From Patescibacteria group bacterium (GTDB lineage: Bacteria; Patescibacteriota; Patescibacteriia; UBA9934), in the NCBI GenBank assembly GCA_041666205.1, contig JBAYHI010000001.1, positions 26,894 to 90,893 of the forward strand: a stretch of DNA of 64,000 nucleotides, in the 5' to 3' direction. Numbering within the stretch: the first letter of the stretch is position 1; each line of letters starts with the position of its first letter. The position numbers and the translations under genes are program-made. Under the pieces are notes generated by a model that searched no databases, was not told the DNA's origin, and saw only the letters and a list, made by a program, of their open reading frames with translations. Shown here one piece after another: positions 6,583-59,799 of this stretch.

Positions 6583-7572
6583 CTATTCTTCCTTGCAAGA
6601 TCCAAACGTAAGGGCAAATAACGACAAATCTTTTGATTTTGTGCGAATTTTGAGCGTCCCTTTGTGATACGTGTCCGACGAAACCAATTTATAAAGGCGG
6701 TGATCTGCCACATGCACAATGGCGCGATCCCCCACAAACTCTACATCTGCGCCCGCCATATCGCTTGGAAGCGGCATTCCATCGAACTCAATCTCAACTT
6801 CCGCGGACTTGCCAGCTCCCATCACAATATTTACGGAAAGTGCCGAATATTTGATTGCGATATATTCGGTTGGGCTTGGTAATTCCTTGATATGAGAAAT
6901 GGATTCCCCGTTTACCTGCCAATGCCCATGCAGATATAAAAGATCGTCTTCGTGTACGCCTGTATCGGTAAATGCATGCTCAGTATTTGGAACCAGATTC
7001 ATGCCATTGCCATATCGGCCTCGCAAATATCCCAAATACGTCTCAGGCGTAGTGCGGTAGCAAATTCCCCCGCCAACCAGCGGATCAGGTGCAATCGCTG
7101 GTAAATCCATGGCACCAGTTTCGGCAAGCGCATGCTGAATTGCACTTTCAGTTTTCGCATACCCATGTTCGCCAATGTGATCGTAAACAATAAAGCCGTG
7201 GCGATCAATCACAAATGAGCGTGGCCACCAGCGATTGGCGTATAAATTCCAAATCTTATATTCCGAATCGAGCACAACCGCATAGGTAATGCCCATTTGC
7301 TCGATTGCCTTGCGCACGCGCGCCGATTCTTTTTCAAATGCAAATTCAGGCGAGTGGACACCAATGATGACAAGTCCCTTCTCTTTATATTTTTCCTGCC
7401 ACTCCTTCACATGCGCAATCGCGTGATGACAATTGAGGCATGAGTATGTCCAAAAATCAATCAAAACAACCTTCCCTGCCAATTCTTTCAGTGTTAATGG
7501 CGGAGAATTTACCCACTCCAGTTCTTTTGGAAACTCTGTGGCACGTACTTTTGCAATGCGATGCAAAATCAT
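6583..7572 (-). CDS. Thioredoxin-fold (redoxin/TlpA-like) protein with a C-terminal extension
   Basis: The thioredoxin-like region carries a FWTYSCLNCHH redox motif and an HSPEF segment. The start is uncertain; MILHRIAK is preferred over the upstream Met. Confidence 0.7.
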   Translation of the reverse strand: MILHRIAKVRATEFPKELEWVNSPPLTLKELAGKVVLIDFWTYSCLNCHHAIAHVKEWQEKYKEKGLVIIGVHSPEFAFEKESARVRKAIEQMGITYAVVLDSEYKIWNLYANRWWPRSFVIDRHGFIVYDHIGEHGYAKTESAIQHALAETGAMDLPAIAPDPLVGGGICYRTTPETYLGYLRGRYGNGMNLVPNTEHAFTDTGVHEDDLLYLHGHWQVNGESISHIKELPSPTEYIAIKYSALSVNIVMGAGKSAEVEIEFDGMPLPSDMAGADVEFVGDRAIVHVADHRLYKLVSSDTYHKGTLKIRTKSKDLSLFALTFGSCKEE

Positions 7573-7637
7573 AAGAACAACGACATTACAACTCAGTATA
7601 TACTCTCCCCCTTGCGCGTGCAAAAATATCTCGTTCT

Positions 7638-8084
7638 TTGCTACAATGGAGGCATATGCAACTCAGCGATCATTTTCTGCCATATTTAAATCCAACGCTT
7701 CTTATTGTGACAAACAATGAGTCTGCAAAGATTTTCAAAGCGCAAAATCACGAAATCGATGAAATCGAATTGCTCGTGGTTGGAAAACGAGAAGTCGAGG
7801 GTCGAGGATCGGGTACGCCAAACGATGGACCACCCGATTATGATGAATTAAAACATCAACAACGCTTAGAGCTCTATAAAACGCTCAGCGACTATTTACT
7901 TCAATACACGCAAAAAAATCCCGAGACTGAACTCATTTTATGCGCACCCGAAGCAAATAAGGGGGAATTGCAAGACGCAATGCATCGAGATGTGCAGAAA
8001 AAAATCGTGTCCCTGGTGCCAAAAAATCTTGCCTCGCTTCCAACCGATCAAATTATCCGAATATTACAAGAACACCGCACCTAG
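7638..8084 (+). CDS. Host-attachment-protein (Hap)/baeRF-like family protein
   Basis: A 140-150 aa protein. The layout TLLIVTNNESAKIF ... LILCAPEANKGELQDAMHRDVQKKIVSLVPKNL matches the PF10116-type pattern WxLVADGxRARIF ... LVLVAPPRTLGELRKxL..V..KIVGEI.KDLT. Start may be the downstream Met at 7656. Confidence 0.6.
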   Translation: MLQWRHMQLSDHFLPYLNPTLLIVTNNESAKIFKAQNHEIDEIELLVVGKREVEGRGSGTPNDGPPDYDELKHQQRLELYKTLSDYLLQYTQKNPETELILCAPEANKGELQDAMHRDVQKKIVSLVPKNLASLPTDQIIRILQEHRT

Positions 8085-16736: not shown

Positions 16737-16764
16737 CCGTCATCCTGAGCGTCAGCGAAGGATC
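16737..16764. repeat. REP-like repeat unit ccgtcatcctgagcgNNagcgaaggatc (family R, copy 1)
   Basis: The same 28-mer with 2 mismatches recurs at 58460-58487, where an inverted partner follows. Confidence 0.6.
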
Positions 16765-16863
16765 TCATGTAAAATTCTTGTAGATTGCTTCGTCCAGCTA
16801 AGCTGGACTTCGTCGGATTATTATCCTCCTCGCAATGACACAATTAAGGTAAGATAAGCATAT

Positions 16864-31204: not shown

Positions 31205-32128
31205 ATGGCAAAAACACTCGATAGTTACATCAAAAACTTCCTAGAATATTTGGAAATTGAGCGTGGGCGATCGCCAAAGACAATACGAAATTATGCGTTT
31301 TACTTGAATCGGTTTGCGGAATGGGCAAAAAATCCAGTTCCCTCAAAGATTACGGCCGACATGATTCACGATTATCGCCTCTATCTTAATCGATCAATTG
31401 ATGGGCGAGATGGACAGAATTTGAAGAAAAGCACCCAAAATTATCATTTGATTGCCCTGCGAGCGTTCCTTAAGTATTTAGCAAAAGAAGACGTACGCGT
31501 CATTTCCGCAAATAAGATCGAACTTGCAAAGCAAGGAACGCGCACCGTGGCGTTTTTGGAGCCAGAGGAGCTAGAGCGTCTCCGAGTTGCGCCAAAAGAA
31601 ACAGGAGGAATCATTGGACTCCGCGACCAAGCAATCATTGAAACGTTGTTTTCGGCTGGACTTCGCGTATCAGAACTCGCAAACCTTCGAATTGACGGAA
31701 TCAACTTGAATCGCGACGAGTTTACGATTAAAGGAAAGGGCAGCAAACACCGCGTGGTTTTTCTCTCGCCCGAGGCACGCGCAACCATTCGTGCGTATAC
31801 AAATGCGCGAAAAGACACTTCTCCGCATCTTTTTGTGAGCCATGACCCGGCAAAACGAAAGCGCGGGATTGTGGATCCGCTCACGCCACGCTCAATTCAG
31901 CGCACAATTGATCGCTATGCGCGTCAAGCTGGAATTACCAAGCGAATTACCCCTCACGTGCTTCGTCATACATTCGCAACCGATTTGCTCCGCAACGGAG
32001 CTGACTTGCGTTCCGTGCAGGCGCTTCTTGGCCATGAGTCCATTTCAACCACCCAGATTTACACGCATATTACCGATAAAGAACTCCGAAGAGTCCACAA
32101 AACGTTCCACGATAAGAAGCAGGCTTGA
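31205..32128 (+). CDS. xerC: Tyrosine recombinase XerC/XerD family
   Basis: N-terminal SAM-like domain and a C-terminal catalytic domain with R..HxxR...Y (HVLRHTFATDLL, LGHESISTTQIYTH). Confidence 0.85.
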   Translation: MAKTLDSYIKNFLEYLEIERGRSPKTIRNYAFYLNRFAEWAKNPVPSKITADMIHDYRLYLNRSIDGRDGQNLKKSTQNYHLIALRAFLKYLAKEDVRVISANKIELAKQGTRTVAFLEPEELERLRVAPKETGGIIGLRDQAIIETLFSAGLRVSELANLRIDGINLNRDEFTIKGKGSKHRVVFLSPEARATIRAYTNARKDTSPHLFVSHDPAKRKRGIVDPLTPRSIQRTIDRYARQAGITKRITPHVLRHTFATDLLRNGADLRSVQALLGHESISTTQIYTHITDKELRRVHKTFHDKKQA

Positions 32129-32176: not shown

Positions 32177-32253
32177 GCACCCATAGCTCAACTGGATAGA
32201 GCAGGAGGGTTCTAACCTCAAGGTTGTAGGTTCAAGTCCTACTGGGTGCACCA
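32177..32253 (+). tRNA. tRNA-Arg (TCT)
   Basis: Hand-folded: acceptor gcaccca/tgggtgc, anticodon loop gtTCTaa, T arm gtagg-ttcaagt-cctac, plus CCA. Confidence 0.75.
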
Positions 32254-32263
32254 CGGAAATTAT

Positions 32264-32339
32264 GGCGGCTATAGCACAATGGTTAGTGCACTGGGTTGTG
32301 GTCCCAGCTATAAGGGTTCGATTCCCTTTAGTCGCCCCA
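32264..32339 (+). tRNA. tRNA-His (GTG) with extra 5' G(-1)
   Basis: G-1 plus acceptor gcggcta/tagtcgc, anticodon loop ttGTGgt, T arm aaggg-ttcgatt-ccctt, discriminator C then CCA. Confidence 0.8.
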
Positions 32340-32375
32340 TTAAAAAATCTCTGCAAACGCAGAGGTTTTTTAATA
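32340..32375 (+). terminator. Intrinsic terminator after tRNA-His
   Basis: tctctgcaaacgcagagg followed by tttttt. Confidence 0.7.
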
Positions 32376-32494
32376 GTCGTTTAGGAATTGAACCCTTATA
32401 GCTGGTTGAATTCGGGTTCGATGACCAAACGAGCGAGGAAAACAGAATCCTTTTCTGATTTCCGAGCGAGAGCAGAACATCTGGCAAAGCCAGA

Positions 32495-32547
32495 TTCCCT
32501 TTAGTCGCCCCATTGAAAAATCTCTGCAAACGCAGAGGTTTTTTAAT
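32495..32547 (+). repeat. Direct repeat of the tRNA-His 3' end plus terminator (copy of 32322-32374, 1 mismatch); att-like scar
   Basis: 53 of 53 nt match except 1 mismatch. The intervening 120 bp contains an inverted degenerate tRNA-His fragment (32384-32405). Confidence 0.7.
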
Positions 32548-32552
32548 TGTGT

Positions 32553-32587
32553 CGTCGTAGGGACGTTGCCTGCAACGTCCGTGAATC
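32553..32587. repeat. Palindromic intergenic repeat family P, copy 1 (tcgtcgtagggacgttgcctgcaacgtccgtgaat)
   Basis: Core inverted repeat ggacgttgc/gcaacgtcc. Two more copies lie at 58369-58403 and 59711-59742. A perfect 8-bp palindrome gggtggcc/ggccaccc follows at 32593-32614. Confidence 0.7.
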
Positions 32588-32636: not shown

Positions 32637-33428
32637 ATGTCCTATATGCCATCAAAATCTTCCCTTCTCATCTCCTGGAACGTAAACGGCGTTCGGGCTG
32701 TGCTCAAAAAAGGATTTTTGGCGTGGATGAAGGAAGTTTCGCCTGATGTTTTGTGCATTCAAGAAACAAAAGCTCAAATTCCCCAAATTCCAGAAGACGC
32801 AGTACATCCAGAAGGCTATATTGGCGTTTGGAGTTTTCCAGAGCGCAAAGGTTATAGTGGAGTTGCGACATTCATAAAAGACGAACCAAAAGCAATTATT
32901 TCAACGTTTGGCGAACCTTTGCTTGATGAAGAAGGTCGAATTATTCTTACCGAACATGAAGATTTCTACTTGTTCAACGTTTATTTCCCAAATGGTGGGC
33001 GCGACGACGATCGATTGAAATACAAAATGAAGTTTTACGATCGATTTTTGGATCTGATCGAAGAGTATCGCAAAAAGAAACCGGTAATCTTTTGTGGCGA
33101 TGTAAATACGGCGCATCACGAAATCGACATTGCGCGACCAAAAGAAAATGAGAAAAACTCCGGTTTCATGCCAATAGAGCGCAAATGGCTCGATAAATTG
33201 GAAGAACACGGATTTGTCGACGCGTTCCGTCATTTCCATCCTGACGCAAAAGACGAATATTCCTGGTGGGACGTAAAATCCGGTGCGAGACTTCGCAATG
33301 TGGGCTGGCGAATTGATTATTTCTGGGTCGACAAGGCAATTTTGCCAAAAGTAAAAGAAGCATTTATTTGGCAGAATGTGCGCGGGTCAGATCATTGCCC
33401 GGTTGAAATCCGTATCGAAGCCAAGTAG
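32637..33428 (+). CDS. xth: Exodeoxyribonuclease III (AP endonuclease, EEP family)
   Basis: Motifs SWNVNG, QETK, DVNTAHHEID, SDHCP. Start chosen at MSYMPSK; the longer track ORF runs through the palindromic repeats. Confidence 0.85.
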   Translation: MSYMPSKSSLLISWNVNGVRAVLKKGFLAWMKEVSPDVLCIQETKAQIPQIPEDAVHPEGYIGVWSFPERKGYSGVATFIKDEPKAIISTFGEPLLDEEGRIILTEHEDFYLFNVYFPNGGRDDDRLKYKMKFYDRFLDLIEEYRKKKPVIFCGDVNTAHHEIDIARPKENEKNSGFMPIERKWLDKLEEHGFVDAFRHFHPDAKDEYSWWDVKSGARLRNVGWRIDYFWVDKAILPKVKEAFIWQNVRGSDHCPVEIRIEAK

Positions 33429-41845: not shown

Positions 41846-41922
41846 GATCCTGTAGCTCAACTGGATAGAGCAGGTCCGTCCTAAGGACAAGGTTACAGGT
41901 TCAAATCCTGTCAGGATCACCA
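41846..41922 (+). tRNA. tRNA-Arg (CCT)
   Basis: Acceptor gatcctg/caggatc, anticodon loop gtCCTaa, T arm acagg-ttcaaat-cctgt, plus CCA. Confidence 0.75.
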
Positions 41923-47800: not shown

Positions 47801-47830
47801 GTTGATGTCCCGCTTCGCCGTCAGGTATAA
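44807..47830 (+). CDS. Large surface protein: signal peptide, two ITW-type repeats, Pro/Thr/Glu-rich linker, three carboxypeptidase-regulatory-like domains, TM segments
   Basis: Start at MMNL, overlapping the previous stop. Repeats LDAPNGGESLDYGDAQNITWS and VTSPNGGESYEQGVSRTITWTS. Linker EPPVEPPVEPPTEPPTTPP. CarboxypepD_reg-like patterns (SDGRYFFNVDAGKYFIRVTKPGF; DRKGRYAFMVGPNEYYASFEKPGYE). Confidence 0.7.
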   Translation: MMNLVNRCFFGAVVVTIAFFACGNSVVSAASITNVYDQPSTLLISTASNHNFTIVPTSNIDEGDTLTLTFPSGFTTASITEDDVDIADDSVDLTTASDSCAGAEQASVVMASNILTITVCAGDGGTIAAGSTVAIEIGLNASASGTGANQITNPSAVATYFIALAGTFGDFGSIPIPILSRVGGTASATVPSFAAGGSGEEPSPSYMITLDAPNGGESLDYGDAQNITWSNGAAIPLIDIYYSTDSGASYALIAAGQTNDGLYSWTVPDVTTTRARVRVDGMDGSATLATDASDADFTIIGSSIGADYLVTVTSPNGGESYEQGVSRTITWTSGSLISTVNILYSTNGGSSYTSIASGESNDGAYTWTVPVVVTADAKIKIEGIVGALQISSDESDGAFSITAPVVIEEPEPEIPPVEPPVEPPVEPPTEPPTTPPTESPTTPPVTPPGGAEPGTETPATPSPTTTEIEGVEHEVNVTVTTEDGSIALGGDEGAYVLPGMPVLVRVIAEDTEKIEDVSVTIGNRTYMPSEVSDGVYVVSAPIAGGVTNVTVITTYTDGETTSTVGLAQMGYGIVYEIVDDAWVPVSGALVTVQDWSGVNNPAITGSDGAVGWYAPNGSYTVRVEKEGYETKEVGLSVSNNVLAPNVELTKTAEEIIEEVIPGETIVPVVVSETVQVISQSVTQVATAVSDAVIAVRENQAVQDVATVATPVMVVSAVSSAAVLSTSFNLWPILQYLFTAPILFFARRRRQNFGIVYNSITKVPIDLAVVRLYDAQAKLVRTMVTDSDGRYFFNVDAGKYFIRVTKPGFTFPSAYLSGVKADGNFVDIYTQGYLEVTEQSVIIAANIPLDPVSEEGAKATKRIRKDKILRVFQNSVALAGIILAIYIVVIQPSAFSWLMLGVQVLLYVGTKLLIRPRKKKGWGIVYGAEDRSPIANAIVRLFEPKYHKLLETAITDRKGRYAFMVGPNEYYASFEKPGYETREVRPIDYRNKKELTPISVDVPLRRQV

Positions 47831-47916
47831 TGAGGAAAGATTTCGTATTGCGGGAGGTGGATTTTTACGAATGCACCTCTTGCTGTATGAAGCATGAGGA
47901 TTCCTTCTTGAACCGG

Positions 47917-50900
47917 ATGAAAAAAATCGCACGTTTGTTCGTGATCGTGTTTGTTTTTGCGTTTGCATTTGGTGTTACGGCTCCTAAACTTCTCAATGCA
48001 AATGCTGCCGCATCACCAAGCAATATTATTGGCTACCAAGGTCGACTTTTAAATGCAAACGGCGTTCCCCTTACCGACGCGACGGTTGATGTGATCTTTC
48101 GACTTTATACGGCGTCTTCCGGTGGTTCGTGTTTGTGGTCAAACTCTTCGGCTACATGTGCATCAGCCACCGCGCGAAGCGTAACGCTTACAGATGGGCT
48201 TTTTTCTGAAAATCTTGGTGACACGGGAAGTTCTTACGCGGCGATTGCAAGCACGGTATTTGGAGATAATGCAGCGGTCTACTTGGATGTAAATGTGGAG
48301 GGCGAGAGCCTATCGCCTCGTCGTCTTTTGGTTGCGGCGCCATATGCCTTGAATGCACAAACGCTCGATGGAATTGATTCTACGGCATTTGCGCTTCTTA
48401 CAAGTACCGATTTGGATGACGCATATAATAATTTCACTACGAATGCGGCTGTCATCAATATCGACGACAATAACAACGATACGAATGCAGGCCTCACATT
48501 TCTTTCTGCAAACGATACGATCGTTGGGGGCACCATGCTCCAAATTACCAACAACGACACGACCAATAATCCAACAACACTTGCAATCACCAATACCAGC
48601 ACGGGTAGTGGCTTGGCAGTGACGCAGTCCGGGGCAGGGGTTGGGGTTGCAATTACCCAAAACGGTGCTTCAACCGGGCTTACCCTTTCACAAACAACAG
48701 ATTCAATCGCTTTTGGGCTCACTTCCAGTTCAACAACAGCGAATGTTTTTGATATTTCTTCCGGGACGACTTCAGGAAAGATTTTTGATATAACAACGTC
48801 CGCGCTGACGACTGGGAAAATATTTGATCTCACAACGTCCGCGCTGACCACGGGAACGATTTTGGATATTGGAATCACTTCGGAAAATGTGAGTACGGCC
48901 GATATTATTCGCGCATCACATACAAAAATCATCGACACAACCCAGGCGATTTCTGGCAACATGATTGATTTCGAGCGTGTCTTGATGTCAGATACGGGTG
49001 GGGATGTTACCATTTCGGGCGACATGGTAAGTCTCGTAAGCGCAGGTTCAGCGTCTGGCGGTACGCTTACGGATTCGTCAAATGTTCTTTTTGCAAAACA
49101 AGATTATGCCTCCGCAACCGGTGCTGTCATTAATATCGATAACGACGGTGTCGGAGAAGGAATCTGGATTGAACAAGATGGCGATGGTCGCGGAATGTTT
49201 ATTAACCAAGATGGCGCTGGAATTGGTTTGGAAATTGATGCAGAAGCCACGGCATATTCGGGACTTTATGTGAATAGCGCGGCCACTGGCGCCAATGCGA
49301 TTGATTTTATTGGGAGTACGAATACTGGCAAGTTATTAAATCTCACCGCAAACTCCCTCACAACTGGTGTAGGGATTGATTTAGCAACGACGTCTACCTT
49401 GCTTACAAGCGGGGACCTCATTCAAGCGGATCATAGCGCAACGTATACGACCACGAAGACGCTTGACGGGAACTTATTGGATTTAAGTCGTAATCTTACA
49501 ACAAACGGGGCAGGGGCTCTCACATTGAGTGGTGCGCTTGCAACGCTTTCAAATACAGGAACGCAAACCGCAGGGACGCTCACGGATTCATCAAATATTC
49601 TTTTCCTCGATCAGAATTACGCAGCCTCAACCGGGGCGGCACTTCTCATTGATTCCGAATCACTAACAGGTCCATCGATTCAGGTGGATAGCGTTGCCAC
49701 AACTGGGAGCACGGTGGTTGTGAATGCGCCAAGCACAACCACGGGTACGATTTTGAGCATCACCGGCGGTAACTTTACTGACGATTCTGGGTTAGCACTT
49801 GCCATTGACGTGACGGAATCCACTGAGACGGCAAATATTTTGAATATTCAAACAGATTACAGCTCTGGTAATAATAACGTGTTCCGAATTGAAGCCGACG
49901 GCGAAGCATTTAGCGATATTGGGTTCACAGCTGGAGCATTTTCAACAAATTATTACGATGGATCCATTACCTCAACTGGCGCGTTCACCTACGAAGCGGC
50001 AACGAGTTTTACCTGGCAAGACGACGCGGTTGGCCCAAATACACTCATGACGCTCACAGATCTTGGAACGAACGCAACCCTGAGTGTCACAGGGGACTTG
50101 TTTATCGACAAAAATGACAATGATGTCGCTCTAGAAATCGACAGCGAATCCACAACAACCAATGTTTTTGCGCTCAATGCTGATCCAAATCTTTCAGGGA
50201 ATGTTCTTGACATGAGCGCCGATGGATTAACATCCGGAAATGGTTTGGATATTCAAAGTACGTCAACGGCGCTTACAAGCGGAGATCTCATCCAAGCCGA
50301 CCACACGGCAACGTATGGATCTGGCACAGTCAGTGGAAACCTACTTGATCTAACGCGAGCAATCGCAGGTACAGCAACGGTAAACGGATCACTTGCAACA
50401 CTCGCAAGTACAAATAGTGGGAGTGTAACGGATAGCGCAAATATTTTGTTCCTCGATCAGAATTACGCAGCCTCAACCGGGGCGGCACTTCTCATTGATT
50501 CCGAATCACTGACAGGTCCATCGATTCAAGTGGATAGCGTTGCGACAACCGAAAATACGGTGGTTGTGAACGCACCAAGCACAACAACCGGAACAATTTT
50601 GAGCATCACTGGTGGGAACTTTACCGACGATTCCGGATTGGCGCTTGCCATTGACGTTGGGGAATCAACCGAAACAGCAAATATTTTGAATATTCAAACA
50701 GATTACAGTTCTGGCAATAATAACGTGTTCCGAATTGAAGCCGACGGCGAAGCATTCAGCGACATTGGATTTACTGCTGGCTCGTTCTCGACAAATTATT
50801 ACGATGGATCCATTACTTCGACCGGAGCGTTTACATATGAGTCTGCTACGAGTTTTACTTGGCAAGACGACGCGGTTGTCCCGAATACACTCATGACCCT

Positions 50901-53900
50901 CACAGATCTTGGAGCAAATGCAACCTTGAATGTTACAGGCGACCTATTCATTGATAAGAACGATAATGATGTAGCACTCGAAATTGATAGTGAATCTACA
51001 ACGACGAACGTTTTTGTCCTAAATGCGGATCCGAACCTTTCAGGGAACGTCTTTGACATGAGTGCCGATGGATTGACCTCTGGGAATGGCTTAGATATTC
51101 AAAGTACGTCAACGGCGCTTACAAGTGCAGATCTTATCCAAGCTGACCACACGGCAACGTATGGATCGGGAACAGTCAGTGGAAACCTACTTGATCTAAC
51201 GCGAGCAATCGCAGGTACAGCGACGGTCAATGGAGCGCTTGCGACGCTTTGGAGCAAAAATACGGGGAGCGTCACTGATTCCGCAAATATTTTGTTCTTG
51301 GACCAAGATTTCGCGACGTCCACAGGTTCTGCACTCAAAATTGATACGACAACAAGTGCCGGAAAAGCCATTGAGGTTCTTGCTGACAATTTCGGCGGCA
51401 GCGGGAGTGCTATTTCTGTATCACTTGATAATTTGAATGACGGGACAGGGTTTTTACTTGATTCAACATCTGCAAATATTTCCTCTGGTAAGCTCGCAAA
51501 CTTGAGCCATGCCGGAACCTATACGACCGGCGGACCAGTTTCTGGCAATATCCTTGCTGTTTCACGTGCTGTGCAAGTAGATAATGGCCCGTATATTACG
51601 GACGTCACAGGTTCGGTATTTGCGCTATCAAGCAATAATGGAACACTTGGCGGAACCATGAACGACAGTGCGCAAGTGCTTTCAATTTCGCAGTTATATA
51701 CTGGCGCAACGGGTGATGTTTTGAATATCAATAATGACTCAACCGCTTCAACCTCAATCGGCATTCTTGCCGACAGTACGACGGGCACGGTTTTTTCCGC
51801 AACCGCAAATGCGCTCACAACCGGAAATGGTATTGATTTGACAACTGCCTCCACCGTGCTTACGAGTTCGGATCTTATTCAAGTCGATCACACCGCAACA
51901 TATGGGTCTGGCACGATTTCGGGAAATATTCTTGATTTAAGTCGCGCAATTGCAGGCACAGCAACGGTCAATGGAGCGCTTGCCACGCTTGCGAGTACAA
52001 ATAGCGGAAGCGTGACAGATGGAGCAAATATTCTATTCCTCGATCAAAATTACACGGCGTCAACCGGAGCGGCACTGCTTATTGATTCAGAATCGACTGC
52101 TGGTTCCTCGATTGCTATTTTAAGTTCTGCCACCACCGGGGACACGCTTGAAGTGAACGCCTCTGCGACAACAAGCGGGAATATTTTGGATATTGGTGCA
52201 AACGCTGTTGCAAACGGGAAGGTAATCGATATTGATAATAGCGCGCTTACCACAGGATCCATCATTGATATCATCACGGATTCCGGCGCGATCTCTTCTG
52301 GAGATCTTATTCAAATGAATCACAATGGCAGTTATTCCACCAATGTCGGGTTAAGTGGCAGTTTTATGGATTTTACTCGTGACCTTACGAGCACGGCCAA
52401 TACGCTCACCGTTACCGGGCCGATGGTTGAATTCCACAGCGATGGCACGGTTTCGGGAGGGGCGGTGACGGATTCATCAAATATTTTATTCCTGAACCAG
52501 GACTACGAGGCATCAACTGGCGCATCACTTGCGATCGATTCAGAATCACTCACGGGCCCGTCCATTCAAATTGATAGTGCAACGACGACGGGAAATACAC
52601 TTGTTTTCAATGGGGATTATGTAACAACGGGCGCGGTGGAAGTACTAAGTGCAGACCGGTTGACTTCCGGGAATATTCTCGACCTTTCAAGTACTTCCAC
52701 GGTATTGGAGGGGAGCGACTTCATTCAAGGTGATCACACCGCAACATACGTTACAAGCAAAACAATCACCGGCAACCTGCTTGATTTGAGCCGAAACCTT
52801 ACGCTCAACGATGCAGGAAGCGGATATACGCTAGGGATCACCGGAGCACTCGCAACTCTTGCCAATACGGGGACTCAAACATCCGGTACACTCTCGGATT
52901 CCTCAAATATTTTGTTCCTCGATCAAAACTACGCCGCGTCAACTGGCGCGGTGCTCGCAATTGATTCTGAGGCAACATCGAGCAATGCACTTTTGATTGA
53001 TGCTGCAAACACCGATACCGCAGTTATTGCAGCCAATGGCGATAGTTTGACGACTGGAAATCTTCAAACCATGAGCGCTGATGCTCTTACAACTGGCAAT
53101 GGGATCGACATTTCAACAACATCTACGGCGCTCACAAGTTCTGACTTATTCCAGGCCGACCATACAGCAACCTATACAACCACAACGAACGTTACGGGAA
53201 ATCTTTTAGACTTACGTCGTATTCTAACAATCAACGATGGTGGGTCTGACGATCAAACGCTCACATCAAGTGGTGCACTTGCCTATATTCAAAGCGCCAC
53301 AACCGATACATCGGGAGCACTTGCAATTACGGCGCCGCTTCTTTGGCTCGATGAAGACTCTACTGCTTCCACGAATACGATTTTAAAAATTGATTCCGCT
53401 TCCACATCAACAACCGCCATTGGAATCACCGCGGATGCGCAAACAACAGGAAACGGTATTCTTATGAGCGTTGATGGGATGACAACCGGATCTGCTCTAT
53501 ACATTGAGCGTGGGGACGGGGCAACACAATTCTCTGATACTACGGAGGGATTGGCCTATATCGCTCAATTGGACGATAACTCCAATGGTCATATTTTGCA
53601 GGTGAAGAGCAATGGGAGCGGTGGGATATTGGGATATTATAATCACACAGGTCTCAATTCAACGGATCCTGTTTTGAAGGTAATCTCAAATAGCGTAGCA
53701 GATTCGGCAAATGAAGGAATCAATGGATTTGTTGCGGAGTTTATCAATAATAGTGCGGATACAGGTTTAGATAACCGCATGGGGATCATGATCCAGGCCT
53801 GTAAAGACGATGGTGCAACAACAGCATGTAATTTTCTTGAATTCCGCGATGGTGATGGAACGGCAATGGGGGCTGTTGAAGCAAATGGAGCCGGTGGTGT

Positions 53901-55917
53901 TACTTTGCGTAGCGGAAGCGCGGACTATGCCGAATATTTTAATGGCAATCCAGCACTTTTCCCAGAAGGAGTTATTGCCGGCATTCAATCCGATGGTTCC
54001 GTAGCGCCAGCAATCACGGATGAATCTGTAATTGGTGTCCGTTCAATCTCGCCGATTGTATTAGGAGGCGTAAGCGAGGGTGAGTCTATTGCCAATAAAG
54101 TAACGGTTGGTTTGTTTGGCCAGATTCGCGTGAATGTTAATAATGAAGGTGGTGCAATTACAGCAGGCGACTACATTACGGTTTCGTCAGTCCCCGGCGT
54201 TGGGAAGAAGGCAACGGAATCGGGAAAAGTCGTGGGTCAAGCGCTTGAATCCATTGATGGATCGGGCCTCATCAAAGTTTACGTTGCCCCACATTGGCAG
54301 GGAATTAATTTCCTCGCCTCCGACGGAAGTGCAACAACGGTTGCAACCGATTTCATTGTCGACGCTGTCGGCCCGGCCACAGAAAGCTCTGCCTCTGCAT
54401 CACGCTCACTCATCCTGCGCGGTTCAGCCTGGGTTGATGGCGCTTCTGCCTCAACCGATATGGTCATTTTGAACGACGTAACGGATAGTTCTGACTATGG
54501 ATTGAGCGTTTCAAATAACGATGGATCTGAAGTGGCTAATTTGAGCAATAATGGCGATTTGGCAATTGCGGGGAACCTGTATCCATCAGATCGAGGAGTT
54601 TTGCAAACGGAAAAGTATATTTATTACGATGGCTCAACTGGCGTTGGTGGCGATTTAATGCGCACAAATGCCTCGGGATGGGGAACAGGATCATATGACT
54701 TTGCCGAAATGTTCCCGTCAAGTGATTCACTCGCAGCTGGCGAACTTGTGATTTTTGGAAGCAGCAATGAAAGCGTTGCGCGGTCAAGTGGCGCAACATA
54801 CGATCAAATGATTGCCGGTGTGGTTTCAACAAAACCTGGATTCTTAGCCGGTGAAAACAATCCTGGCGATGTGCCGGTGGCTCTTGCGGGTCGTGTTCCA
54901 ACCTATGTGAGTGGGGAAAACGGTTCCATCGCACCTGGTGATCCACTTACATCTTCTACAAAGCCGGGTTATGCCATGAAGGCTACGACTGCTGGACCAA
55001 TCGTTGGCTACGCCATGGAAGCGTTTGATGGAAATACCGGCGTTGTGATTGCGTTCATTCGCCCTTCCTATTATGACGGCGCAACCGATTTGGCTGATGC
55101 CCCGGCTGCAGACAATTCCGCCTCAGAACTTGAAGGTGTTTCCACGCTCAATTTATCGCAAATGCATGATTTGGCAGGTGGAAAACTTATCAATGTTGGT
55201 AGTCTCTCTGGGTTGGCTGGGGCGTGGACATTATCCGAAAACGGGAACTTTGCAACGAGTGGTGACATCAAACACGTCGTAACTTCTTATCAAAATGAGA
55301 AGATCGATACGTACGCTTCTCTTTCTCGCGAACAAACGATTCAATTATCTGGTACCGTGGACATGCAAAATGGATTTGCTAGCGTCACATTTGAAGATGT
55401 AGACGAAAAATTCAATGATGTGATTTCAAATATTGCCCCGTATCGAGTGCTTATTACACCAGAAGGACTTTCGGGACAGCTCTACGTATCAAATCGTGAC
55501 CAAAATGGATTCACGATTCAAGAAAATGGCGGTTCATCGAATGTGAAAGTTGATTGGCTCGTGATCGCCTACGAAAAAGATAAGGAGCCGGAGCAAGAAT
55601 CGCTCATCCCAGAAGATAATATCCCAGCCGAAGAAACGCCTATCGTTTCGGATCCAGTGAGCAATGACGCTGGGACAACCCCAGGGTTGTCCGTACCTGG
55701 GGAATCGCCGGAGGAAATAATTCCTTCGCAAGATCCCATCGTTGATCCAGACGTAGGGACAACTCTAGAGTTGTCCGTGCCAAATGAACCAACCGAAATC
55801 GTCGAACCGATCATTGAAACGCCAACCGAACCGATCATCGATAATTCGTTGATTAATGACGTAGGGACAACCCCAGGGTTGTCCGTACCGGAAGAATCAA
55901 CGATCATTACGGAATAA
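47917..55917 (+). CDS. Giant (about 2660-aa) Thr/Ser/Gly/Asn-rich repeat surface protein
   Basis: Single uninterrupted ORF. Start chosen at MKKIARLFVIVFVFAFAFG (signal peptide); alternatives are 47830 and 47887. It is built from about 280-aa degenerate repeats, including two near-identical 846-bp tandem copies. The C-terminus has three [ND]D[AV]GTTPGLSVP[GE]ES repeats. Confidence 0.8.
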   Translation: MKKIARLFVIVFVFAFAFGVTAPKLLNANAAASPSNIIGYQGRLLNANGVPLTDATVDVIFRLYTASSGGSCLWSNSSATCASATARSVTLTDGLFSENLGDTGSSYAAIASTVFGDNAAVYLDVNVEGESLSPRRLLVAAPYALNAQTLDGIDSTAFALLTSTDLDDAYNNFTTNAAVINIDDNNNDTNAGLTFLSANDTIVGGTMLQITNNDTTNNPTTLAITNTSTGSGLAVTQSGAGVGVAITQNGASTGLTLSQTTDSIAFGLTSSSTTANVFDISSGTTSGKIFDITTSALTTGKIFDLTTSALTTGTILDIGITSENVSTADIIRASHTKIIDTTQAISGNMIDFERVLMSDTGGDVTISGDMVSLVSAGSASGGTLTDSSNVLFAKQDYASATGAVINIDNDGVGEGIWIEQDGDGRGMFINQDGAGIGLEIDAEATAYSGLYVNSAATGANAIDFIGSTNTGKLLNLTANSLTTGVGIDLATTSTLLTSGDLIQADHSATYTTTKTLDGNLLDLSRNLTTNGAGALTLSGALATLSNTGTQTAGTLTDSSNILFLDQNYAASTGAALLIDSESLTGPSIQVDSVATTGSTVVVNAPSTTTGTILSITGGNFTDDSGLALAIDVTESTETANILNIQTDYSSGNNNVFRIEADGEAFSDIGFTAGAFSTNYYDGSITSTGAFTYEAATSFTWQDDAVGPNTLMTLTDLGTNATLSVTGDLFIDKNDNDVALEIDSESTTTNVFALNADPNLSGNVLDMSADGLTSGNGLDIQSTSTALTSGDLIQADHTATYGSGTVSGNLLDLTRAIAGTATVNGSLATLASTNSGSVTDSANILFLDQNYAASTGAALLIDSESLTGPSIQVDSVATTENTVVVNAPSTTTGTILSITGGNFTDDSGLALAIDVGESTETANILNIQTDYSSGNNNVFRIEADGEAFSDIGFTAGSFSTNYYDGSITSTGAFTYESATSFTWQDDAVVPNTLMTLTDLGANATLNVTGDLFIDKNDNDVALEIDSESTTTNVFVLNADPNLSGNVFDMSADGLTSGNGLDIQSTSTALTSADLIQADHTATYGSGTVSGNLLDLTRAIAGTATVNGALATLWSKNTGSVTDSANILFLDQDFATSTGSALKIDTTTSAGKAIEVLADNFGGSGSAISVSLDNLNDGTGFLLDSTSANISSGKLANLSHAGTYTTGGPVSGNILAVSRAVQVDNGPYITDVTGSVFALSSNNGTLGGTMNDSAQVLSISQLYTGATGDVLNINNDSTASTSIGILADSTTGTVFSATANALTTGNGIDLTTASTVLTSSDLIQVDHTATYGSGTISGNILDLSRAIAGTATVNGALATLASTNSGSVTDGANILFLDQNYTASTGAALLIDSESTAGSSIAILSSATTGDTLEVNASATTSGNILDIGANAVANGKVIDIDNSALTTGSIIDIITDSGAISSGDLIQMNHNGSYSTNVGLSGSFMDFTRDLTSTANTLTVTGPMVEFHSDGTVSGGAVTDSSNILFLNQDYEASTGASLAIDSESLTGPSIQIDSATTTGNTLVFNGDYVTTGAVEVLSADRLTSGNILDLSSTSTVLEGSDFIQGDHTATYVTSKTITGNLLDLSRNLTLNDAGSGYTLGITGALATLANTGTQTSGTLSDSSNILFLDQNYAASTGAVLAIDSEATSSNALLIDAANTDTAVIAANGDSLTTGNLQTMSADALTTGNGIDISTTSTALTSSDLFQADHTATYTTTTNVTGNLLDLRRILTINDGGSDDQTLTSSGALAYIQSATTDTSGALAITAPLLWLDEDSTASTNTILKIDSASTSTTAIGITADAQTTGNGILMSVDGMTTGSALYIERGDGATQFSDTTEGLAYIAQLDDNSNGHILQVKSNGSGGILGYYNHTGLNSTDPVLKVISNSVADSANEGINGFVAEFINNSADTGLDNRMGIMIQACKDDGATTACNFLEFRDGDGTAMGAVEANGAGGVTLRSGSADYAEYFNGNPALFPEGVIAGIQSDGSVAPAITDESVIGVRSISPIVLGGVSEGESIANKVTVGLFGQIRVNVNNEGGAITAGDYITVSSVPGVGKKATESGKVVGQALESIDGSGLIKVYVAPHWQGINFLASDGSATTVATDFIVDAVGPATESSASASRSLILRGSAWVDGASASTDMVILNDVTDSSDYGLSVSNNDGSEVANLSNNGDLAIAGNLYPSDRGVLQTEKYIYYDGSTGVGGDLMRTNASGWGTGSYDFAEMFPSSDSLAAGELVIFGSSNESVARSSGATYDQMIAGVVSTKPGFLAGENNPGDVPVALAGRVPTYVSGENGSIAPGDPLTSSTKPGYAMKATTAGPIVGYAMEAFDGNTGVVIAFIRPSYYDGATDLADAPAADNSASELEGVSTLNLSQMHDLAGGKLINVGSLSGLAGAWTLSENGNFATSGDIKHVVTSYQNEKIDTYASLSREQTIQLSGTVDMQNGFASVTFEDVDEKFNDVISNIAPYRVLITPEGLSGQLYVSNRDQNGFTIQENGGSSNVKVDWLVIAYEKDKEPEQESLIPEDNIPAEETPIVSDPVSNDAGTTPGLSVPGESPEEIIPSQDPIVDPDVGTTLELSVPNEPTEIVEPIIETPTEPIIDNSLINDVGTTPGLSVPEESTIITE
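49590..51281 (+). repeat. Two near-identical in-frame tandem repeats of 846 bp (282 aa) inside the giant ORF
   Basis: The 49606 ctcgatcagaattacgcagcctcaaccggggcggcacttctc string recurs at 50452; period 846 nt. Protein segments TDSSNILFLDQNYAASTGAALLIDSESLTGPSIQVDS ... are near-identical. Confidence 0.85.
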
Positions 55918-58368: not shown

Positions 58369-58403
58369 TCGTCGTAGGGACATTGCGTGCAACGTCCATG
58401 AAT
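58369..58403. repeat. Palindromic repeat family P, copy 2
   Basis: atcgtcgtagggacattgcgtgcaacgtccatgaat; followed by the perfect 14-bp inverted repeat gtagagacgcgatt/aatcgcgtctctac at 58415-58442. Confidence 0.7.
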
Positions 58404-58459: not shown

Positions 58460-58533
58460 CCGTCATCCTGAGCGATAGCGAAGGATCTCTCGAAGATTAT
58501 CCTGGGATTCTTCGCTGCGCTCAGAATGACGAA
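58460..58533. repeat. REP/MITE-like inverted pair of family R units (left arm 58460-58487, right arm 58506-58533)
   Basis: ccgtcatcctgagcgatagcgaaggatc ... gattcttcgctgcgctcagaatgacgaaac: the arms are reverse-complementary, with about 23 of 28 positions pairing. Confidence 0.65.
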
Positions 58534-59680: not shown

Positions 59681-59742
59681 CGGGCGAGGGAACCTCGCCC
59701 GTACGATGATTCGCCGTAGGGACGTTGCGTGCAACGTCCATT
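59681..59742. repeat. Palindrome cgggcgagg-gaac-ctcgcccg followed by repeat family P, copy 3 (59711-59742)
   Basis: tcgccgtagggacgttgcgtgcaacgtccatt. Confidence 0.7.
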
Positions 59743-59799
59743 CTTTAAACGAAAAAGCGGCTCTGCGAGACGATTGCAGATGCCGCTTGGGGGAGAGAG

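Follow-up and report, generated by a model that had tools for sequence, protein, structure and literature searches.

A duplicated tRNA-His 3' end next to a Xer recombinase gene in a Patescibacteria genome looks like a small local copying scar

Does a direct repeat of a tRNA 3' end, next to a gene of the "phage integrase family", record the passage of a mobile element, or has the host copied a piece of its own sequence? The question is raised by a locus in a 64-kb stretch of Patescibacteria DNA (the whole stretch analyzed, here called the window), in which part of a tRNA-His gene and its terminator are present twice, downstream of the gene for a tyrosine recombinase. A preliminary description of the locus had read the repeat as the footprint of site-specific integration at a tRNA gene. 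Our analysis upheld the geometry on which that reading relied, but found no support for the rest of it in the composition of the interior, in the search for an integrase and for occupied, attP and distal copies, or in the proposed link to the recombinase. The locus is an instance of already known kinds of genomic scar. It looks like the product of a small local copying accident, with the scar of a lost mobile element being less likely, and the duplication is most likely functionless.

The locus begins with two tRNA genes on the + strand, tRNA-Arg(TCT) at 32177-32253 (ARAGORN; Rfam, 63.1 bits) and an intact tRNA-His(GTG) at 32265-32339 (ARAGORN; Rfam, 66.7 bits), whose sequence includes G-1 at 32264 and an encoded CCA. 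A repeat search confirmed that the 3' end of tRNA-His recurs together with its terminator at a spacing of 173 nt, start to start. The preliminary description had given this repeat as 53 nt, including 18 nt of tRNA and one mismatch; it measures 58 nt, 20 of them from the tRNA, and 56 of the 58 positions (97%) are identical, with mismatches at 32342/32515 (A/G) and 32375/32548 (A/T). Copy 1 (32320-32377, + strand) starts at G57, inside the T-loop (32317-32323), and comprises the last 20 nt of tRNA-His (the 3' strands of the T-stem and the acceptor stem, C73, and CCA) as well as a whole bidirectional terminator hairpin with a perfect 16-bp stem (32339-32374); it ends 3 nt past this hairpin. Copy 2 (32493-32550, + strand) consists of a displaced tRNA fragment, G57 to A76 (32493-32512), located downstream of the intact gene, and a second terminator hairpin (32512-32547). 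When a 55-mer taken from this sequence was searched with up to three mismatches, it matched in the 64-kb window only at these two places, compared with none expected from 100 shuffles, so that the distal att copy suggested in the preliminary description was not found there.

The duplication is real and not a product of assembly. It is identical in the 288-kb MEGAHIT source contig (L021) and in an independent JGI contig that spans all of it (L002). A mis-join at a repeat might be suspected from one short-read unitig assembly, Logan (k = 31), whose break falls within the 32 nt that the two copies share exactly; yet this break is expected, because a real exact repeat of 32 nt breaks a k = 31 graph. 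No exactly repeated stretch exceeds 32 nt, far under the k of 141 that is suggested by "k141" in the contig name. The probability of such an artefact is next to nil.

The 115-nt interval between the copies is partly built from the same tRNA gene. Positions 32384-32405 hold, on the - strand, a 22-nt inverted copy of 32304-32325 (tRNA-His positions 40-62), complementary at 21 of 22 positions (95%; repeat search, and blastn with E = 9e-5 within the window), and the reverse-complement remnant that had been described between the copies is therefore genuine. Its source covers the 3' strand of the anticodon stem, the variable loop, and most of the T-arm, and 16 nt of it fall outside the repeat block. 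The inverted piece lies nearly symmetrically about terminator 1, the two centres being 2 nt apart by arm coordinates, and it lengthens the terminator palindrome from a 36-nt to a 102-nt hairpin (-33.9 kcal/mol and z = -8.55 in a DNA fold; the same holds in an RNA fold). A third piece, GGGTTCGAT (32414-32422, + strand), is an exact direct 9-mer of tRNA 32314-32322 (positions 51-59); judged by shuffling, a direct 9-mer at any place has P ~0.0125, and one that adjoins the boundary of the repeat has P ~0.001. GGGTTCGAT shares GAT with the start of the repeat block, and if 32423-32492 is skipped, it forms with copy 2 an uninterrupted copy from the T-arm to the terminator. The skipped 70 nt are a unique spacer, flanked by GAT on either side, with two small hairpins and an 8-nt direct repeat, CGAGCGAG.

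Read in the direction of the tRNA genes, the locus consists of tRNA-His with terminator 1, a 9-nt filler, inverted 40-62, an 8-nt filler, direct 51-59, the 70 unique nt between GAT and GAT, and direct 57-76 with terminator 2, which places the tRNA-His pieces in direct-inverted-direct orientation across 173 nt. All pieces end in the anticodon stem (32303-32307), in the T-arm (32312-32328), or immediately past the terminator hairpin (32374). Of the 115 nt of the interior, 31, or roughly a quarter, derive from tRNA-His (the inverted 22-mer plus the direct 9-mer). Blastn against the window and the fetched loci turned up no template for 87 of the 173 nt (9 + 8 + 70), and the interior occurs just once in the window.

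Several simpler origins were considered for these sequences and rejected. A simple tandem duplication does not fit an interior that is not itself repeated (A-B-A, not A-B-A-B). A decayed second tRNA-His gene would require 5' two-thirds that are no longer recognizable next to a 3' part that is still 97% identical. Nothing supports a reading of the 70-nt piece as a MITE whose insertion duplicated a 3-bp GAT target, as it has neither terminal inverted repeats nor another copy. The 115-nt interior contains no credible open reading frame (ORF), and a 102-aa ORF on the minus strand across the region was dismissed as low-complexity read-through of the repeats.

The recombinase upstream is a Xer-type protein of 307 aa (31205-32128, + strand) with Pfam Phage_integrase and SAM-like N-terminal domains. 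Its position upstream of the tRNAs was described correctly, and the distance, given as about 200 nt from the tRNA pair, is corrected here: the stop codon lies 48 nt before tRNA-Arg and ~190 nt before the repeat. The protein scores 237 bits against the XerA equivalog model NF040815 of NCBIfam (cut-off 220), its best PDB matches are XerA (4a8e and 5hxy) and XerD (1a0p), and the catalytic R..K..HxxR..H..Y motifs are visible in its translation. A homolog search returned 7,342 proteins at E <= 1e-40, of which the best 120 are 302-399 aa long, 64-82% identical, and come from Patescibacteria/Uhrbacteria bins. Relatives keep xer in a neighborhood of the same core genes (pnp, NYN, rpsO or polA, holA). 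It adjoins rpsO/pnp or polA near tRNA-Arg/tRNA-His in five of them, and the tRNA-Arg(TCT)/tRNA-His(GTG) pair follows immediately downstream in L004 and L014, the two nearest relatives, and lies within 1-2 kb in L015-L018. Because this neighborhood recurs in relatives that lack the duplication, the adjacency of xer and the tRNAs is old synteny.

In domain architecture, catalytic motifs, core-gene neighborhood, and phylum-wide conservation, the protein is like the dimer resolution recombinases XerA, XerC, and XerD. It is a housekeeping Xer and not the integrase of an island, and its gene is a vertically inherited core gene, not island cargo. The equivalog score, the Xer-like structural matches, and the conserved synteny do not bear out the suggested link of this recombinase to the repeat; we found no functional connection between the two, and the Xer gene and the duplication are unrelated. 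Searched by tblastn with the Xer protein, the 64-kb window showed no other tyrosine recombinase, and it is free of integrase, phage, and Y1 or IS30 transposase genes. The rest of it is made up of core genes (suf genes, polA, holA, rmuC, ychF, and others).

Comparison with a sister genome (L004/L010) bears on the age of the structure. Its Xer is 82% identical, and gene order is the same from pnp to the Gmad2/Germane gene. The sister has a single tRNA-His 3' end without the repeat; homology with the window ends a few bases past CCA, and the sequence further downstream is not alignable. The duplication is thus the acquired state, as it is absent from the sister, and it is recent and lineage-specific, since its copies are near-identical (56/58 and 21/22) and even a sister at 82% Xer identity lacks it. 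Single copies of the tRNA-His 3' end are also present in L014, where a simple terminator follows, and in L015, L016-L018, L007, and L009. The preliminary description had proposed a search of related genomes for an occupied site, and none was found in seven relatives (the sister and six others). It had also named two observations that would speak for a simple local duplication, a firmly housekeeping Xer and the same duplicated structure in related genomes; we found the former and not the latter.

The relatives have features of their own around this site. Directly after tRNA-His, the sister carries a different long hairpin of 126 nt (L004 5175-5300; -57.9 kcal/mol, with perfect outer arms of 17 nt), which is unique within the fetched loci; the site after tRNA-His is structurally variable in both lineages. 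Between tRNA-Arg and tRNA-His, the sister has ~41 extra nt (L004 5048-5099), and between rpsO and xer there are three small ORFs in tandem with an RNA_pol_A_CTD domain (L004 2289-3877); the window has neither. In L014, whose Xer is 70% identical, tRNA-His is followed by a gene-free, structured-looking stretch of ~500 nt (7160-7700), in which no Rfam family reached the gathering threshold.

Scans of public collections, whose power to detect an occupied site, an attP, or a distal copy is limited, gave no such match. The 3' 20-mer of tRNA-His had no match in viral contigs and six in GTDB genomes, all single and none doubled; the GTDB representatives do not include the source genome. A 37-mer from the repeat core was absent from metagenome contigs, in a collection that also failed to return the JGI contig bearing the locus. 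The 22-mer of the inverted piece matched twice, both times in unrelated tRNA-His genes. Two patterns across the junctions of interior and tRNA pieces were not found in viral contigs, and a blastn search of the interior against GenBank phages gave no match. Exact look-ups of the neighboring S15 and PspC proteins returned only the same strain, in three samples, and no strain variants. For such comparisons, a single-copy allele would read tRNA-His-terminator-TGTGTCG, and the circular junction of an excised form would read …GGCAAAGCCA-repeat-AGTCGTTTAGG…; an imported interior would be indicated by a sister in which tRNA-His-terminator is directly followed by TGTGTCGTCG, without the 9-, 8-, and 70-nt fillers.

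We tentatively favor, at a little short of an even chance, an origin by hairpin-driven template switching during replication or repair at tRNA-His and its terminator, which would have left non-functional templated copies as a lineage-specific structural scar. Synthesis passing the very stable terminator palindrome would switch template and copy the tRNA stretch as a reverse complement, from position 62 back to 40, creating the 102-nt hairpin. A switch back may then have occurred at the anticodon-stem palindrome (CTGG/CCAG), after which the 3' part of the tRNA would be copied again in direct orientation, from the T-arm through the terminator. The two short fillers and the 70-nt piece may represent pre-existing spacer or additional templated or inserted DNA. 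Intact tRNA-His and the first terminator would stay functional, and the extra pieces would encode nothing. Direct-inverted-direct structures at short palindromes, of the tandem-inversion-duplication type, have been described in Salmonella. Template-switch mutations are known to copy neighboring sequence as its reverse complement, by which hairpin stems are created or lengthened (PMC8794818).

The locus resembles quasipalindrome template-switch and tandem-inversion-duplication events in its extended palindrome, the order and orientation of its pieces, its breakpoints in hairpins, and its small scale. The presence of three separate pieces of the host's tRNA-His in a space of 173 nt, the middle one inverted and the outer two direct, suggests template switching, as one class of mechanism covers them all; identity of an att core cannot account for the inverted piece, because 16 nt of that piece lie outside the repeat block. 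Every breakpoint is in a hairpin, which points the same way: the direct copies start in the T-stem and the T-loop, and the apparent switch points coincide with palindromes or quasipalindromes that existed before (anticodon stem, T-arm, end of the terminator). The span of the inverted piece, from the 3' strand of the anticodon stem to that of the T-stem and nearly symmetric about the terminator, is likewise suggestive. So is the length of 173 nt, which is natural for templated insertions and hard to obtain by deletion from a kilobase-sized element that spares both repeats. The different hairpin of the sister suggests that the site is unstable there too, the purely core-gene content of the window is consistent with an event in which no mobile element took part, and the near-identity of the copies fits a recent one.

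Other features argue against template switching. Half of the new sequence does not behave as in clean template-switch events, in which all inserted bases are locally templated: the 87 nt without a template in the window must be ancestral spacer or copied from elsewhere, and the junctions are unclean, with two fillers and the 70-nt block. The mirror image of the acceptor 3' strand, which should stand between the terminator and the inverted piece, is missing. Several switches or successive events are needed, and the genomes compared offer no ancestral or intermediate state, the sister not being alignable downstream of the tRNA. Finally, a co-oriented downstream repeat that runs from the T-loop to the tRNA 3' end is exactly the footprint of an integrase as well.

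That footprint is the basis of the main alternative, which we consider unlikely, if the least so of those weighed here: an attP carrying the 3' part of tRNA-His and its terminator integrated by crossover in the T-loop, and nearly all of the element was then deleted, leaving attL and attR 115 nt apart and its integrase either lost with it or encoded elsewhere in the genome. The Islander approach recognizes tDNA islands by an intact tDNA with a co-oriented terminal fragment, an integrase, and a length of 2-200 kb, and it places crossovers in the anticodon loop, the T-loop, or at the T/acceptor junction (PMC4383910). The locus is like such an island in that a co-oriented cognate fragment lies on the correct, downstream side of the intact tRNA, starts at a recognized sublocation (G57-A76, T-loop), and continues past the tRNA end. 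The 58-nt identity block with two mismatches is of typical size, the absence of the structure from the sister agrees with an insertion, and the 70-nt piece, having no local source, could be foreign. Unlike an island, however, the locus has no tyrosine integrase in or overlapping the interval and no ORF, the sole recombinase of the window being the housekeeping Xer, and its interval of 115 nt (173 nt start to start) compares with a minimum of 2 kb in the Islander length filter. A deletion that spared both repeats and only ~115 nt between them is improbable. Pieces of the host's own tRNA-His, one of them inverted, are not expected within element ends, and scans of limited power showed neither an occupied nor an attP state in the relatives, the viral contigs, the GenBank phages, or, as a doubled tRNA end, in GTDB. 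We also compared att-flanked remnants that lack an integrase (CIME-like elements). That the 173-nt unit is a minimal remnant of this kind, derived from an element targeting tRNA-His and still recombinable in trans or open to accretion through an integrase encoded elsewhere, appears very unlikely to us.

Two further explanations were weighed. The locus may be a functional RNA arrangement, in which the second terminator and the long hairpin serve as a reinforced or insulating terminator between the tRNA operon and the nuclease gene, or in which the interior and copy 2 form a small RNA with a tRNA-like 3' end. The region is indeed much more stably folded than its shuffled versions (z = -5.8 and -9.8), the perfect terminator is kept in both copies, and the sister also has an unusually large hairpin here. 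Strong folding, however, follows trivially from the repeats. The structure is not conserved, as every relative compared lacks it, neither strand showed a promoter-like site between 32300 and 32640, and an Rfam search of the region, even at E <= 10, returned only the two tRNAs and meaningless microRNA-type matches; a function of this kind is very unlikely. Still less probable, to the point of being barely worth considering, is an IMEX-like footprint of Xer itself, with the terminator palindrome AAAAATCTCTG-CAAACG-CAGAGGTTTTT (11-6-11) acting as a dif-like site. What speaks for it is the adjacent xer gene and a dif-like geometry that is common to any terminator hairpin with a 4-nt loop. A dif site would be expected to change slowly and together with its recombinase, but the hairpin differs in the sister in spite of its 82% identical Xer, and differs again in L014, and we rejected it as a dif-like site on this lack of conservation. 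Moreover, the repeat includes 19 nt of the tRNA ahead of the hairpin, which duplication of a Xer site leaves unexplained, and the G+C-rich stem reads as an ordinary intrinsic terminator.

The locus matters little on its own. It does advise caution, as a direct repeat of a tRNA 3' end beside a gene of the "phage integrase family" can arise without a mobile element; this caution rests on the housekeeping character of the recombinase and on an interior partly built from the tRNA itself. If template switching is the correct explanation, the locus would be a neat natural case, from a CPR bacterium, of a patchwork duplication that hairpins have driven at the terminator of a tRNA gene. An att scar would be modest evidence for tRNA-His as a target of integrative elements in Patescibacteria, and a CIME-like remnant would make tRNA-His an active integration hotspot in a lineage (CPR) that has reduced genomes and has been little studied.

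Directly after copy 2 lies a REP-like element (32552-32586, + strand), in which GTAG is followed by a hairpin with a 9-bp stem (GGACGTTGC..GCAACGTCC). It is one of three intergenic copies in the window, the others being at 58369-58403 and 59711-59745. The window has no Y1/RAYT transposase gene; the relative L014 has a Y1_Tnp ORF (1085-1561). The downstream neighbor, called xth in the preliminary description, is a gene for a nuclease of the Exo_endo_phos family (32646-33428, + strand; Pfam Exo_endo_phos, 2.7e-29) and is conserved in the sister (L004). The two tRNA-Arg genes of the window, TCT and CCT, share an identical 22-nt acceptor/D-arm segment (32184-32205 and 41853-41874; 77% identity over 70 nt), which is ordinary isoacceptor similarity and not a mobile-element repeat. 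A second dispersed intergenic motif, CCGTCATCCTGAGCG.AGCGAAGGATCTC, has two copies with 93% identity (16737-16766 and 58460-58489). A giant ORF of 2,695 aa (47830-55917), flanked by further large ORFs of 1,039 and 795 aa, contains long internal repeats with periods of 846 and 741 nt that are 60-90% identical, and at its 3' end a 49-nt unit with a hairpin, GGGACAACCCCAGGGTTGTCC, is present in three copies (55658-55898) spaced 84 and 108 nt apart.
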